This document shows positions 14,170 through 52,831 of a stretch of 64,000 nucleotides of DNA, in pieces. The notes beneath the pieces were generated by a model. That model made no database searches, was not told the origin of the DNA, and saw only the letters and a list, made by a program, of their open reading frames with translations. The DNA lies in contig CANQFD010000003.1 of NCBI GenBank assembly GCA_947598325.1, positions 22,860 to 86,859 of the forward strand. The letters are read 5' to 3'. The stretch comes from an uncultured Bacilli bacterium (GTDB lineage Bacteria; Bacillota_I; Bacilli_A; RF39; UBA660). Every line of letters starts with the position of its first letter. Position 1 is the stretch's first letter. Position numbers and translations under genes: made by a program.

Positions 14170-15256
14170 CTACATTTTCAAATATCCTTCTATAAATTTA
14201 TCAATATCTCCGTCCAAAACTTTTTGTACATCGCTAGTTTCTTCTCCTGTTCTATGATCTTTAACCATTGAGTACGGATGCATTACATAGCTTCTTATTT
14301 GAGAACCAAAATTTATATCACTTTGATTTTTCTTCTCTTCATCAAGTTCTTTTCTTCTTTTTTCTTCTTCAATTAAATAAAGTTTAGACTTTAATATTTT
14401 CATAGCAATTTCCTTATTTTTTAATTGACTTCTTTCATTTTGACATGTAACAGTTATTCCTGTTGCTATATGAGTAATTCTAACCGCACTGTCTGTTGTA
14501 TTTACTCCCTGTCCTCCTGGACCACTACTTCTATATACATCAATTTTTATATCACTATCTTTTATTTCAATATTAATTTCATCATTTATTTGAGGAGTAA
14601 CTTCAACGGATGCAAATGATGTATGTCTTCTATTTGCTGAATCAAATGGGGATAACCTAACTAATCTATGTACGCCTTTTTCACTCTTAAGATATCCATA
14701 TGCATTAAGTCCTTTGATAAGCACTGTTACCCTTTTTATTCCTGCCTCTTCCCCATATAATGTATCTAAAATTTCATATTTAAATGATTTTTTATCACAC
14801 CATCTTAAATACATTCTAAGTAACATGGAAGCCCAATCGCAACTTTCAGTTCCGCCTGCTCCCGAATGTATTTCTAATATTGCATTTTCTTTATCCTCTT
14901 TAGATGATAATTTTACTGACATTTCTAAATCAGAAATTTGTTTTTTCAAATCAGAAATATTAAGCGTTATCTCCTTAATCAAATCTTCATCATTATAATC
15001 AATAATTTCTTCATAGGAGTCTAATGTTTCTTTTAATTTTTCAACATTTGAAATTATTTTATTATCATCACTTATCTTTTTGGATAAATCAATAGTTTCT
15101 TTTGACCCCCAAAGTTCTTTTTGCTGCATAGTTTGAAGTTTTTCTTCTAAACTTTTTATAGATGCTTTTTTTCCATCTACATCAAAGTAACCTCCAAACA
15201 TCACAAAGTTTTTGTTTTAATGACAATAAGTCTTCCTTTATACTCTTTATATCCAT
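14170..15256 (-). CDS. prfB: Peptide chain release factor 2 with programmed +1 frameshift
   Basis: ATG 15256 gives [24 protein letters not shown] then CTT-TGA at 15187-15182, preceded by internal SD GGAGGT; downstream frame has SPF and GGQ. Confidence 0.97.
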
Positions 15257-15585: not shown

Positions 15586-16026
15586 ATGGAGGTTATATTT
15601 AGAAAAGCTACTTTTGATGATGTAGAGCCCATTATTACTTTATGTAATGAGTGTTTTAACGAAAATACATCTTTAGATTATGCAAAAGAAAATTTTAAAG
15701 AAACGGAAAATGACCAAAATCAAATATATATTGTTGGTTTAGCTGATGGAAAAATAGTTGCTCATGCAAAACTTACAATTATTCCAACTATGTACGAAGA
15801 TATGAATACTTATGCAATATTAAACCATGTCTGTGTTAAACCTGAATTAAGGCGTGGTCATATTGGAACTAAATTGTTGGATGAATGTTTTAAAATAGCA
15901 AAAGAAAATAATTGTAAATGTGTTGAATTATGGTCAAAGAACTTTAGGGTACCTGCTCATGTTCTTTATCATAATTATGGCTTTGAGGTTATGGATGCAA
16001 AATTTTTTACAAAGGATGTTAAATAG
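15586..16026 (+). CDS. GNAT family N-acetyltransferase
   Basis: VCVKPELRRGHIGTKLL acetyl-CoA motif A; LYHNYGF motif. Confidence 0.92.
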   Translation: MEVIFRKATFDDVEPIITLCNECFNENTSLDYAKENFKETENDQNQIYIVGLADGKIVAHAKLTIIPTMYEDMNTYAILNHVCVKPELRRGHIGTKLLDECFKIAKENNCKCVELWSKNFRVPAHVLYHNYGFEVMDAKFFTKDVK

Positions 16027-17237: not shown

Positions 17238-17285
17238 AGAATACTAAAAAAGATCCTAAATGATTAGGATCTTTTTTAGTATTCT
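17238..17285. terminator. Bidirectional terminator, 22-bp perfect inverted repeat
   Basis: AGAATACTAAAAAAGATCCTAA-ATGA-TTAGGATCTTTTTTAGTATTCT between convergent genes. Confidence 0.85.
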
Positions 17286-18130
17286 ATTTCTGTACTATAC
17301 CAATAATAGTTGTTATTAGAACCTTTTTTAAATGTATGTTTAAAAGTATAAAAATCTTGTATGTTTTCTTTTATATAATTTTTTCCAGCTGAAGAAGCAT
17401 TTGTTAATTCTGAATTCTCATCTACTTTATATTTATAAACACTTTCATCCTTTTTAGTTGTTTTAAAAACTTCAAATTCATAATATTCTCCTGTAACAAA
17501 TCCTGCTTTTTCTAATACTATTAACTCATCATTGTCAGTTTTATAATCTATAATTTTATTAACTTTTTCAAGCCCTGCGGCTCCTCTTCCATAAAACGTA
17601 CAATATAAATTATCAGAACTTTTTTTAACAGCACCTCCTGGATATGGAAATTCATTTACTAACTCTGAATAATCATAAGTTTCTTTTAATTTATTTTTTA
17701 GTTCTTCTTCAGTTGTACATTTATTTGCAAAACCTCTTACTTCAGAATCACTACTATTTCTAATTACACTATCTTCCACTTTATTAGTTTTATCAAATAC
17801 CATTGGATATATTGTTGTCGTTTTATCTATAGTTTCCATAGTACTCTTTTCTCCTGAATATGCATCATTATTACTTCCAGATTCATTTCCATCATCTTCT
17901 AAAACCATTGGAACAGTTGCTAAATATTTTTCTAATTCTTCTTCTGAAATTTTTATTTGTTCTTCCTTTTTAGTTTCTTTTTTATCAACTACTTTATCAG
18001 ATTCTTTAACATTAAATACTTTATCATAAATAATATAACTACCCATTCCTATTACTAATAGTATTAAAACTATTACTAAAGCTACTAGTCCTTTACTATT
18101 TTTTGTTTTTACTACTACATTTTCATTCAT
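17276..18130 (-). CDS. N-terminally membrane-anchored variable surface protein (cassette A)
   Basis: MNENVVVKTKNSKGLVALVI leader, single TM ending IIYDKV, then hydrophilic domain ending YYWYSTEIEY. Confidence 0.85.
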   Translation of the reverse strand: MNENVVVKTKNSKGLVALVIVLILLVIGMGSYIIYDKVFNVKESDKVVDKKETKKEEQIKISEEELEKYLATVPMVLEDDGNESGSNNDAYSGEKSTMETIDKTTTIYPMVFDKTNKVEDSVIRNSSDSEVRGFANKCTTEEELKNKLKETYDYSELVNEFPYPGGAVKKSSDNLYCTFYGRGAAGLEKVNKIIDYKTDNDELIVLEKAGFVTGEYYEFEVFKTTKKDESVYKYKVDENSELTNASSAGKNYIKENIQDFYTFKHTFKKGSNNNYYWYSTEIEY

Positions 18131-18225
18131 TCTTATTTCCTCCTATTTAACATAAGTATACCCCCCACACAAAAGTTTCAAGTAAAAAAGTTACTTTTTT
18201 AGTAACTTTACACTTTTATTTATTT
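18072..18225 (-). repeat. Promoter+RBS+leader module, copy 1 (G6 tract)
   Basis: 154 bp, identical to 18957-19112 except one substitution and a 2-nt shorter C run. Confidence 0.97.
18155..18181 (-). promoter_or_regulatory. SigA-type promoter with poly-G spacer, 15-bp spacing (predicted weak/OFF)
   Basis: TTGAAA-cttttgtgtGGGGGG-TATACT. Confidence 0.75.
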
Positions 18226-18331
18226 AATTATTATTTACAATGTAAGAATCATTAACGGAGTTTATTAAATTTCTACTATTACAATTTCATTCATATTTAC
18301 TTAACTCCATTTAAGATATTTACTACTTTCT

Positions 18332-19015
18332 CTATGGTCTATTCTTTGGCATCATTTCTTTTAATGCACGTAAGAAATATACTGATTCTTCTGGATTTAA
18401 TTCTTGAGTTGATTTTTCTAATTTAATTTCTTTATATTTTGCTTTAAAATCCTCAGTATTATATGTACCTGCAATATTTGAATCTATAAGTTTAGTTGCT
18501 GAAGAAATTTTTATATCACTAACAATATTTTCTACATTATCTGAATCATCTGATATTATGTATATAGCCATACCTCCACTAAGTTCAAACATATAATTTA
18601 GATGAATTATATCACCTTCAATGGTATAATTACCATAATATCCAACTACTGACTCTCTAGACATTTCATAATAAAATAGACCATTTTCAAATAGAGTTAA
18701 CGTAAAATTATCACTTTCACCTTCACTATCAACGTAATCATTACCAGATTCGTCAGTACTATATGGCTCACTAACAAATTTATAAATACCAGTCATATTT
18801 TTATAATTATACTTTTCTGATACATTGTTTTTTGACTCTTTAACATTATTATTGTCAGCTTTAACATTTTGTGTTTTTTCAGATTTACCACTATTATTAA
18901 TTACTTTATCATATGCTGTATACCCTATAAGCACTATTACCATTATTAGTAATATAATTACTAAAGCTACTAGTCCTTTACTATTTTTTGTTTTTACTAC
19001 TACATTTTCATTCAT
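18332..19015 (-). CDS. N-terminally membrane-anchored variable surface protein (cassette B)
   Basis: Same first 20 aa as cassette A, TM ending TAYDKV, unrelated beta-rich ectodomain (GIYKF...LTLFENGLFYY...YGNYTIEGDIIHL). Confidence 0.85.
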   Translation of the reverse strand: MNENVVVKTKNSKGLVALVIILLIMVIVLIGYTAYDKVINNSGKSEKTQNVKADNNNVKESKNNVSEKYNYKNMTGIYKFVSEPYSTDESGNDYVDSEGESDNFTLTLFENGLFYYEMSRESVVGYYGNYTIEGDIIHLNYMFELSGGMAIYIISDDSDNVENIVSDIKISSATKLIDSNIAGTYNTEDFKAKYKEIKLEKSTQELNPEESVYFLRALKEMMPKNRP

Positions 19016-19112
19016 TTTTATTTCCTCCTATTTAACATAAGTATACCCCCCCCACACAAAAGTTTCAAGTAAAAAAGTTACTTTTTTAGTAACTTTACAC
19101 TTTTATTTATTT
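18957..19112 (-). repeat. Promoter+RBS+leader module, copy 2 (G8 tract)
   Basis: 156-bp direct repeat of 18072-18225. Confidence 0.97.
19040..19068 (-). promoter_or_regulatory. SigA-type promoter with poly-G spacer, 17-bp spacing (predicted ON)
   Basis: TTGAAA-cttttgtgtGGGGGGGG-TATACT. Confidence 0.8.
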
Positions 19113-22636: not shown

Positions 22637-23293
22637 CTAAATTTTCTGACTTTTTTGATAATTTTTTATTAATCTAACAAGAAGTACTGCTATACATAAA
22701 ATTAATACAGTTAACATTACTATTTGTGAATATGAAATTTTATTTAATCTTTTTGTAAATTGAAAAAGAATTTTTTTTCTATCTGTATTTTGATTAATAG
22801 TCCATGTATAAGTATCTTCACTAATATTATCAGCATTTGAAATTAGAACTTTAAAAGGAGTTTTAATATTTATTTGCAAAAAATTTATATCGCTTTCATT
22901 GCCAATAAGTGATGACTCATTTTGATTTTTAATTTTAACATACTGATCAATATATATATCAACATATTTTTTATTTTTATTATAGCTTATATTATCAATT
23001 AACTGATGATATATTTTACTTTTTAATATATATTCATCTATTGTATTGTATTTTTCTTTATATTCTATAATTATTTCATCTGAAGTTTGTTTAACTTTAT
23101 ATTTATCTCTATCAATTTTATTATCATCAAATATTTTTATAGTCTTATTGTATACATTGTCATTATTATCCAATGATAAATACAAACTTTCATCTATAGA
23201 CAAATCTTTATTAATATTAATATCATAGTTCCCTGAACATCCCGTTAATATAAATATTAAGAATAAAATTAATAATTTTTTTATTTTTTTCAT
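22637..23293 (-). CDS. Putative lipoprotein
   Basis: Lipobox LTGC, ISNAD...YTW motif, C-terminal TM. Confidence 0.75.
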   Translation of the reverse strand: MKKIKKLLILFLIFILTGCSGNYDININKDLSIDESLYLSLDNNDNVYNKTIKIFDDNKIDRDKYKVKQTSDEIIIEYKEKYNTIDEYILKSKIYHQLIDNISYNKNKKYVDIYIDQYVKIKNQNESSLIGNESDINFLQINIKTPFKVLISNADNISEDTYTWTINQNTDRKKILFQFTKRLNKISYSQIVMLTVLILCIAVLLVRLIKNYQKSQKI

Positions 23294-51478: not shown

Positions 51479-52831
51479 CTACTTTCCTAAACAAAAGTTA
51501 CTAAATAAATTATCAATTAACTTATCATCATAACTCTCTCCTATTATTTCATTTAATATTTCACATATTTCTTTTATATCAATTTCAAGCATATCTATTG
51601 GAATATCTTCTTTTAAAGATTTTTCTAAATTTTTAGATGCTTTTATAGCCTTTTTTATAAGTGATATTTGTCTTGAATTAGATAAATATGTAAAATCTTT
51701 ATTATTCAATTCATCTAAATTAAAGATATTACTTATTTCTTTTTTTAATAAATCAAGTCCATCATCTTTTAATGCAGAGATTTTTACTACTTTTTCATTT
51801 TTTAATTTATCTAAATCTATTTTTTCTTCTAAATCTATTTTATTTATTACTATTATTCTTTTTTTATTTTTTGTTTTTTCTAATAATTTTTCATCTTCAT
51901 TTGTAAAATTTTCATTATTATTAAAAACTAATATTATTAAATCTGAGTTTTTTATTAAATTAAGAGATTTTTCTACTCCTATTTTTTCTACAACATCATT
52001 TGTATTTCTTATTCCCGCAGTATCTATTATATTTAATAATATTCCATTTATTCTTATTTGACCTTCTACTATATCTCTTGTTGTTCCTGCAATATTAGTA
52101 ACTATAGCTTTATCTTCTTCTATTAATTTATTTAATATAGAACTTTTTCCAACATTTGGTTTACCTAAAATTAAAGTATTTATACCCTCTTTTATTAATT
52201 TACTATTTTCTGATTCATCCAATAATTTCATTAATTCTTTATTTATATAATTTGATTGTTCCATTATTTTTGTTTTTGTAACTACTTCTATATCATTATA
52301 TTCTGGATAATCTATATTAACTTCTATATTAGCATTTAAACTTATTAAATTATTTATTATATCTTTTATTAATTTTGATATTTTTCCTTCAACACCATTT
52401 AATGCAAGTTTTCTAGAATTTTCCGTTTTTGATTCTATTAAATCCATTATACTTTCTGCTTCTAATAAATCTATTCTTCCATTTAAAAATGCTCTTTTTG
52501 TGAATTCACCAGGTTCTGCAAGTCTTGCACCTTCTAATAACAAAATTTCTAAAATTTTATTTGTTGTTGCTACACCACCATGAGCATTTATTTCAACTAT
52601 ATTTTCCTTTGTAAAAGTCTTTGGTGATTTCATAACCGATACCATTACTTCATCTATTATTTCATTTTCATATTTAATATAACCATAATTTATTGTATGT
52701 GATTCTACTTTATTCAAATTCTTTGTAAATATTTTATTAACTATATTTATAGAATTTTCACCACTTAATCTTATTATAGATATTGCGCCAACACCAAGTG
52801 CTGTTGAAATTGCACATATTGTATCATTCAT
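51479..52831 (-). CDS. mnmE: tRNA modification GTPase
   Basis: DTICAIST, GKPNVGKSS, GTTRD, DTAGIR, FCLGK. Confidence 0.98.
   Translation of the reverse strand: MNDTICAISTALGVGAISIIRLSGENSINIVNKIFTKNLNKVESHTINYGYIKYENEIIDEVMVSVMKSPKTFTKENIVEINAHGGVATTNKILEILLLEGARLAEPGEFTKRAFLNGRIDLLEAESIMDLIESKTENSRKLALNGVEGKISKLIKDIINNLISLNANIEVNIDYPEYNDIEVVTKTKIMEQSNYINKELMKLLDESENSKLIKEGINTLILGKPNVGKSSILNKLIEEDKAIVTNIAGTTRDIVEGQIRINGILLNIIDTAGIRNTNDVVEKIGVEKSLNLIKNSDLIILVFNNNENFTNEDEKLLEKTKNKKRIIVINKIDLEEKIDLDKLKNEKVVKISALKDDGLDLLKKEISNIFNLDELNNKDFTYLSNSRQISLIKKAIKASKNLEKSLKEDIPIDMLEIDIKEICEILNEIIGESYDDKLIDNLFSNFCLGK

Follow-up and report, generated by a model that had tools for sequence, protein, structure and literature searches.

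Two tandem genes with poly-G promoter spacers in an uncultured gut Bacilli bacterium as a candidate phase-variable promoter pair

The stretch of DNA considered here (the window) comprises 64,000 nucleotides (nt) of contig CANQFD010000003.1, from assembly GCA_947598325.1 of an uncultured Bacilli bacterium (RF39, UBA660), a metagenome bin of 942,887 bases in 13 contigs, 89% complete and with 24.9% G+C. On its minus strand lie two tandem genes, A and B, each of which begins within one copy of a shared module (Table 1). In the 5' to 3' direction the module carries a hairpin followed by T's, a TTGAAA box, a fixed spacer of 9 nt that runs into eight G's (copy A) or six (copy B), a TATACT box, AGGAGG and the first part of the coding sequence, with the homopolymer located inside the –35/–10 spacer (TTGAAA-N9-G8/G6-TATACT). 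The TATACT box lies 24 nt, and the AGGAGG ribosome-binding site (RBS) 8 nt, upstream of the ATG, and the module extends 59 nt into each open reading frame (ORF). An extended –10 (TG) element was ruled out, as TG does not precede TATACT.

That the two genes share a module of 154/156 nt differing by a single substitution and by the length of the G tract had been proposed from the sequence alone, and the minus-strand reading, a repeat finder, BLAST and MAFFT concur on it. The MAFFT alignment contains only two differences, a gap of 2 nt in the G run and an A/G exchange two bases before the ATG, so that the tract differs by 2 nt while the other 148 positions hold one substitution. The repeat finder returned 65 nt at 100% identity upstream of the tract (18161-18225 and 19048-19112) and a further ungapped stretch of 126 nt at 92%, and with BLAST against the bacterium's own genome 154 of 154 query bases were aligned at 98% (E 1.2e-72). 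The same search counted two copies, with G6 and G8, and no third full copy in the 89%-complete genome; a weak match at positions 51850-51901 of the window was discarded as due to chance, since it falls inside a GTPase-like ORF of 450 amino acids (aa). The hairpin of copy B folds as RNA with –11.2 kcal/mol (z –3.6), and the hairpin pattern has 2 matches in the window versus 0.01 expected. Because such a terminator-like element stands at the start of each module, genes A and B appear to form transcription units of their own. At isolated sites of this and other genomes the hairpin part (query positions ~1-46) is likewise matched at 83-96% (G007:C46, G009:C2, G013:C5, G027:C2 and others; G, C and L are our handles for genomes, contigs and loci), and it seems to be a widespread terminator-like motif.

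Table 1. Features of the A/B locus (positions in the window).
Feature	Position	Strand	Remarks
Gene A (227 aa), with a short and basic N-terminus, a single membrane helix and an outer domain without known family	18332..19015	-	
Gene B (284 aa), anchored N-terminally like gene A; its outer domain differs and ends in conserved FKHTFKK..YYWYSTE	17276..18130	-	
Module copy A (156 nt), comprising hairpin, G8 promoter, RBS and the initial 20 codons of gene A	18957..19112	-	Repeat finder, BLAST, MAFFT
Module copy B (154 nt), comprising hairpin, G6 promoter, RBS and the initial 20 codons of gene B	18072..18225	-	Repeat finder, BLAST, MAFFT; G6 confirmed in contig X6 record 19
Sole substitution between the modules	19017 A vs 18132 G (gene strand)	-	2 nt before ATG
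Promoter A (predicted): TTGAAA 19068-19063, 17-nt spacer, TATACT 19045-19040	19040..19068	-	Same register as G001 TTGACT-17-TATAAT
Promoter B (predicted): TTGAAA 18181-18176, 15-nt spacer, TATACT 18160-18155	18155..18181	-	
G8 tract adjoining –10 box, longest G/C run of the genome	19046..19053	-	G9 variant in run X5 contig
G6 tract adjoining –10 box	18161..18166	-	G/C-run census; contig X6
Terminator-like hairpin, 5' end of module A: 9-bp stem, 5-nt loop, T run	19074..19096	-	Pattern match
Same terminator-like hairpin, 5' end of module B; would terminate the gene A transcript	18187..18209	-	Fold and pattern match
Degenerate partial module between A and B: RBS and MNEIVIVEI-stop, without promoter boxes	18270..18318	-	76-78% to both modules
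Long inverted repeat after gene B, between convergent genes, terminator-like	17238..17285	.	

The assignment of the –35 and –10 boxes, also proposed from the sequence alone, is supported by a genome of the same genus (G001), in which MAFFT places a homologous module at three tandem paralogous genes. That module shares the hairpin arms and continues with TTGACT, 17 nt devoid of a G run, TATAAT, AGGAGG and the start MNENVVV, in the same register. The tract-less spacer of 17 nt has the length found in the G8 copy; on this basis the G8 promoter (17 nt) would be ON and the G6 promoter (15 nt) OFF, a call that the modal spacer of 19 nt in relatives (see below) makes less than confident, as the two states are not safely read from a 17-nt rule.

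Both proteins begin with MNENVVVKTKNSKGLVALVI, followed by a hydrophobic helix that ends in YDKV, and they can be aligned with each other only over residues 1-40 (72.5% identity), the remainder giving no significant BLASTP match; the outer parts are thus as unrelated as had been suspected. The basic N-terminus ahead of the helix predicts, by the positive-inside rule, that A and B are oriented N-in, C-out. Neither protein has a match above cut-off in Pfam or NCBIfam; relatives at E ≤ 0.01 among 5.8 billion proteins number 6 for A and 11 for B, all without a name, and an Atlas search gave only clusters of "hypothetical protein". The family of B is small and its C-terminal motif K-H-T-F-K..YYWYSTE invariant. 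The structural model of B (pLDDT 80.8, pTM 0.70) had 0 Foldseek matches in the PDB at E ≤ 0.001, with weak NTF2-like/PARC6-type matches to the last ~100 residues, and the model of A is of low confidence (pLDDT 48). No cysteine or lipobox was seen in the two N-termini, and no in-frame tandem repeats of note were found, Tandem Repeats Finder giving only short, low-score AT-rich rows. Type IV pilin-like signals show G-F/M-T/S-L-x-E behind a short basic leader; the ..NSKGLVALVI.. of A and B lacks Glu at +5, and neither protein carries the class III pilin motif. Elsewhere in the window (22637-23293, minus strand) an ORF of 218 aa starts in the manner of a lipoprotein (..LILFLIFILTGCSG..) and has another hydrophobic stretch towards its C-terminus. 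Lipoprotein signals are thus present in the genome, but not used by A and B. Also in the window, prfB (release factor 2; 14170-15256, minus strand) has the classical programmed +1 frameshift: from the ATG at 15256 there are 24 codons, then CTT TGA preceded by GGAGG, with the shift site at 15182-15187, after which the +1 frame reads DVDGK.... This site implies that the genome reads TGA as a stop codon (translation table 11 rather than 4).

In the genus, the N-terminal part shared by A and B (MNENVVVKTKNSKG, the membrane helix and YDK) is joined to at least four outer domains unrelated to one another, namely those of A, of B, of the 206-aa P0005/P0006 and of the three G001 paralogues, and similar anchors lead tandem genes in many genera. 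The sequence-only reading had described a constant expression and anchor module fused to interchangeable ectodomains, a description that these proteins bear out.

G runs were expected to be rare in DNA of this composition, and they are: the whole genome contains, in G/C runs, 103 of exactly 5, 14 of 6, 1 of 7 and 1 of 8, while about 0.1 runs of at least 8 are expected from base composition (by our own arithmetic), and the single G8 observed is the tract of module copy A. Among the 16 runs of at least 6, only the two module tracts lie in promoter spacers; 7 are Shine-Dalgarno-like and stand just 5' of a start codon, 4 are in long ORFs, 1 is tRNA-like and 2 are in a short repeat on contig C7. 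The sole run of 7 (G000:C1:197430-197436, outside the window) is Shine-Dalgarno-like, 5 nt before an ATG, and six G6 runs are placed likewise.

The locus was followed in assembled contigs of eight public runs from two studies, listed as "rabbit gut metagenome" or "gut metagenome" and none recorded as RNA; four of the runs, whose contigs come from 31-mer graphs, were compared with it. Run X1 (record 5) reproduces the 156-nt module with G8, and record 19 of X6, from the other study, covers 18031-18736 of the window with no gaps and shows copy B with G6 between its unique flanks on both sides. A contig of X5, a run of another study, has at depth 4.5 one extra G (G9) together with the base of copy A at 19017, and the contig set of this run has one other difference over the 2.4 kb compared; read conservatively, X5 adds one new length, G9, in a near-identical strain. 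A contig of X7 (depth 2.8) joins a module of the G6/copy-B type to gene A. Because the shared stretches (60-65 nt) are longer than the 31-mer word, the X5 and X7 contigs cannot be phased to A or B and may be graph chimeras; for the same reason the X7 join was rejected as evidence of module exchange. The part of copy B left uncovered in X1, X5 and X7 is a repeat-skipping effect and was not taken as a finding. No deletion or inversion joints between the repeats occur in the contigs of the four runs, and the suggestion that the module also serves as a recombination site gains no direct support. Searching metagenome_contigs with a strict pattern that spans the tract gave 0 records, and a 21-mer of the gene start, searched in public contigs, gave chance matches in unrelated contigs of higher GC (L031, L033-L037), the exception being a G001 record.

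The recurrence of such promoters was assessed with the pattern TTGAM, 1-14 nt, G7, 0-8 nt, TATAMT, with the reversed pattern and a C7 version as controls, in a family sample of 201 genomes, one per genus, and in a class sample of 201 genomes that includes the bacterium's own. In the family, tracts of G7 or longer in this setting were found in 43 of the 201 genomes, with about 170 matches versus 1 for the reversed pattern (match totals are our sum of the forward and reverse columns, in which a few overlapping alternatives are counted twice); the C7 version gave 0 matches in 0 of the 201 genomes, and its reversed control 12. Within the genus, G6 or longer occurs in 8 of 12 genomes (25 matches, 0 for the reversed pattern), and in the class sample G7 or longer in 15 of 201 (35 matches, 1 for the reversed pattern), concentrated in a few families. 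In a G7 search of five relatives nearly all long G runs fell in promoter spacers or in the first codons of a multigene family: promoter spacers held 4 of 4 tracts in G024, 3 of 3 in G061 and 1 of 2 in G001, and first codons 11 of 16 in G082 (by reading) and one G11 in G087.

Tract length differs between paralogous copies that have the same flanks. Twelve such copies range from G9 to G14 in G019, and those of G214 from G9 to G12; a tandem trio in G165 has G9/G11/G10, a tandem pilin-like pair in G020 G10/G12, the copies of G195 G7/G8, those of G061 G6/G8/G9/G10, and G024 has G7/G8/G8 along with two interrupted copies (GGGGTGGG). The sequence-only reading's view of the G tract as a maintained, length-variable element is strongly strengthened by the counts in genus, family and class. 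Genes with a conserved 5' module and divergent outer parts occur in clusters, with two genes and a relic in the window, three genes in G001 and tandem sets in G165, G195, G020 and G071; the relic, i.e. the degenerate partial module between A and B, hints at past turnover. Contig ends are often close to poly-G promoters, many of which are no more than about 170 nt away (e.g. G019 C10, C11, C17, C31, C41, C43 and C55; G006 C14, C19, C24, C46 and C50), and the assemblies of these genomes tend to break at multi-copy poly-G modules.

The loci fetched from these genomes comprise 81 distinct sites with G6 or longer in the spacer, 67 of them with at least 450 nt downstream, and at 56 of the 67 a Shine-Dalgarno-preceded ORF of at least 70 aa begins within 200 nt. 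An N-terminal hydrophobic stretch, detected by a crude regular expression, is present in 47 of the 56 downstream ORFs versus 125 of 555 ORFs (22.5%) in the window's own genome, an enrichment that a nominal binomial P overstates because paralogues and kin are not independent; of the nine misses, 3 read as signal peptides and 6 are cytoplasmic-looking. Among the encoded proteins are members of the YDK-anchored family and type IV pilin-like proteins (KGFTLIELLAV); others have a ..YAYF.. N-terminus, which we take to be reminiscent of TasA-type signals, or are secreted proteins of other kinds. The restriction of the switch to surface proteins, as first proposed, is too narrow for the lineage as a whole, in which a few cytoplasmic-looking genes have the same kind of promoter. 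Type IV pilin-like genes (N-terminus MKKKGFTLIELLAV...) stand behind poly-G spacer promoters in G020:C20 (L140/L163), G053:C3 (L136), G006:C2 (L184) and G005:C3 (L185), making phase-variable pili or pseudopili a candidate trait of this family; those of G020 are the tandem pair mentioned above, and all of them are genes other than A and B. The GNAT acetyltransferase encoded in the window (15586-16026), upstream of which no G run was seen, has orthologues in two genomes of the same genus, in G003:C10 (L191), behind TTGACA-N9-G10-TATACT, and in G001:C25 (L192), behind TTGACA..GGGGAGGGGGG-TATACT.

In G082, a genome of another genus, at least 11 paralogous genes (L088, L108, L116-L118, L120 and L124-L128) carry G9 or G10 within the first ~15 codons (ATG aag aat gaa ... 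ctat-Gn-tactttacaaat...), with the membrane helix following directly; in the copy at L124 (G9) the frame meets a TAG soon after the tract, and the G11 of G087 (L089) occupies the same kind of coding position. These coding tracts look like translational phase-variation switches.

We consider it reasonably likely that the locus is a slipped-strand phase-variable promoter pair, in which A and B are separate units switched through the –35/–10 distance set by the poly-G tract. Each gene would have a sigma-70-type promoter whose –35/–10 distance depends on the tract; slipped-strand mispairing during replication would add or remove G's and so change the length of the spacer; the altered spacer would change promoter strength for each gene independently and reversibly, and the population would come to contain cells that differ in their expression of these two unlike membrane-anchored surface proteins. 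Recent duplication or gene conversion would keep the copies of the module near-identical, from the terminator through the promoter, the RBS and the cytoplasmic tail to half of the membrane helix. We infer that slippage would proceed at a useful rate at G6 and G8.

Several observations weigh against switching and have to be set beside the alternatives that they favour. One of these, which we regard as unlikely, holds that the pair is fixed: after a recent duplication or conversion a single 2-nt slip would have been fixed, leaving a strong (17 nt) and a weak (15 nt) promoter with tracts too short and too well repaired to vary at a meaningful rate. G6 and G8 are indeed at or below the lengths usually held to be hypermutable, and relatives have G9-G14; the genome encodes intact MutS (856-aa frame) and MutL (590-aa frame), for which reason a mismatch-repair-deficient background was rejected; copy B has the same G6 in the contig of the other study; and in G071 and G069 all seven copies each are uniformly G8. 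What a fixed pair accommodates poorly is that the tract has changed by 2 nt against a single substitution elsewhere in the module, that a G9 variant exists in run X5, itself a single contig of depth 4.5 that cannot be phased to gene A or B, and that uninterrupted tracts of varying length are kept up across the family, which argues for selection on mutability.

It is improbable, in our judgement, that the G run is instead a sequence-specific element, read by RNA polymerase or a regulator and marking a regulon of surface and pilus genes, with differences in length as tolerated noise. Such an element would fit the strand rule, which also tells against simple slippage, as the sense strand has G, without exception, in its spacer tracts (about 170 poly-G to 0 poly-C in the same 201 genomes); the modal spacer of the fetched loci, which is 19 nt, more than the canonical 17, where the tract adjoins the –10 box (17 of 39 sites), and 16 nt where it is nearer the –35 box (15 of 42 sites); the conservation across genera of the spacer bases beside the tract (TTGACAAAAnGCnT-Gn-TATAMT); and the G-rich spacer (G10 and GGGGAGGGGGG) retained by the GNAT orthologues of both species, which with an ABC ATPase and small acidic proteins are among the six cytoplasmic-looking products that a purely surface-directed switch leaves unaccounted for. 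The tract, however, is beside the –35 box in some classes of promoter and beside the –10 box in others, its length spans 6 to 14, and the homologous G001 module has no tract at the same place; the strand rule, moreover, may stem either from the excess of G over C on the sense strand (GC skew about –0.2 to –0.39 where genes are on the minus strand), by which, in our own arithmetic, G7 seeds are roughly 90 times likelier than C7 seeds, or from a sequence-specific role. Together with the 19-nt mode, the strand rule is a hint of a promoter geometry specific to G tracts. A misassembly, in which one collapsed or mis-resolved repeat appears as two and the tract lengths are consensus errors, has very little left in its favour: the genome is a 13-contig metagenome bin, the 154-nt repeats exceed the graph word size and Logan contigs break inside the module, but contigs of two studies reproduce both genes, with G8 in X1 and G6 within unique flanks in X6, and the same architecture is found in dozens of other assemblies, which largely refutes this reading.

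Extended to the lineage, phase variation of the promoter pair would be one small instance of a contingency system in uncultured, AT-rich gut Bacilli of ~1 Mb, in which sense-strand poly-G tracts, placed in promoter spacers and in some genera in the first codons, switch tandem cassettes for anchored, TasA-like secreted and pilin-like proteins, each family with its constant 5' module, and provide commensals of the herbivore gut with a combinatorial surface in the style of mycoplasmas; on this broader proposition we are evenly divided. If it is true, a large uncultured family of genome-reduced gut Bacilli, about a fifth of whose 201 sampled genera show the pattern, would hedge its bets on surface and pilus genes alike, with bearing on how these bacteria cope with host antibody, phages and neighbours, on how strain-level metagenomics should treat homopolymer "errors", and on why assemblies break at such promoters. 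The relatives also offer a natural series, with tracts from G6 to G14 in two positions and on the G strand only, in which to study the effect of a spacer G tract on a promoter of the Gram-positive type.

Most of what is known of phase variation by repeat slippage comes from cultured pathogens, and work on these was all that a literature search on phase variation, poly-G, promoters and metagenome-assembled genomes retrieved. Searches on RF39 or RFN20 with phase variation or homopolymeric tracts, and on contingency loci or simple sequence repeats in uncultured gut Bacilli or Mollicutes, found nothing relevant, in agreement with the sequence-only reading, which had recognised no described system of this kind in the lineage. 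The mechanism is thus already known, and it is probably the lineage that is new for it.

Among the known systems, Bordetella fim has a poly-C homopolymer in the promoter spacer of fimbrial genes and depends on a regulator. The relatives described here are similar in having poly-G promoters before type IV pilin-like genes, and differ in strand (C in fim), in regulator dependence and in phylum. Campylobacter and Helicobacter are not known to have mismatch repair of the MutS/MutL type; here, by contrast, MutS and MutL are present, the tract is only G on the sense strand, and this genome has just two candidate tracts. In the small AT-rich genomes of these genera, surface-related genes are under the control of numerous G/C homopolymers, both between and within genes (PMC6321876, PMC8355987, PMC2823697). 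The present lineage resembles these phasomes in that the relatives have both promoter tracts and 5'-coding tracts (G082, G087).

In Neisseria meningitidis porA the poly-G tract sits between –35 and –10. The promoter poly-G of porA alters the level of expression of the surface protein (PMC3639595), and the A/B locus is alike in having a poly-G tract within the promoter of a surface-protein gene. Unlike porA, a single gene of a Gram-negative pathogen, the cassettes here are paired or in tandem, share one module and belong to uncultured Bacilli of the gut commensal type.

In Mycoplasma hyorhinis the vlp genes are clustered, and a highly conserved 5' region (promoter and signal sequence) precedes divergent outer parts, an arrangement that the A/B locus shares. 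The vlp tract consists of A's, and the genes encode lipoproteins that have a lipobox cysteine and internal in-frame tandem repeats giving size variation. In the present pair the tract is poly-G, the anchor is a membrane helix without a lipobox, there are no notable tandem repeats, and TGA is a stop. Insertions and deletions in the spacer are an established ON/OFF switch for vlp, maa2 and vmm (PMC2268961). M. hyorhinis vlp, M. arthritidis maa2 and M. mycoides vmm are like the A/B locus as read here: a switch by –35/–10 indels, in genome-reduced AT-rich organisms, acting on surface proteins.

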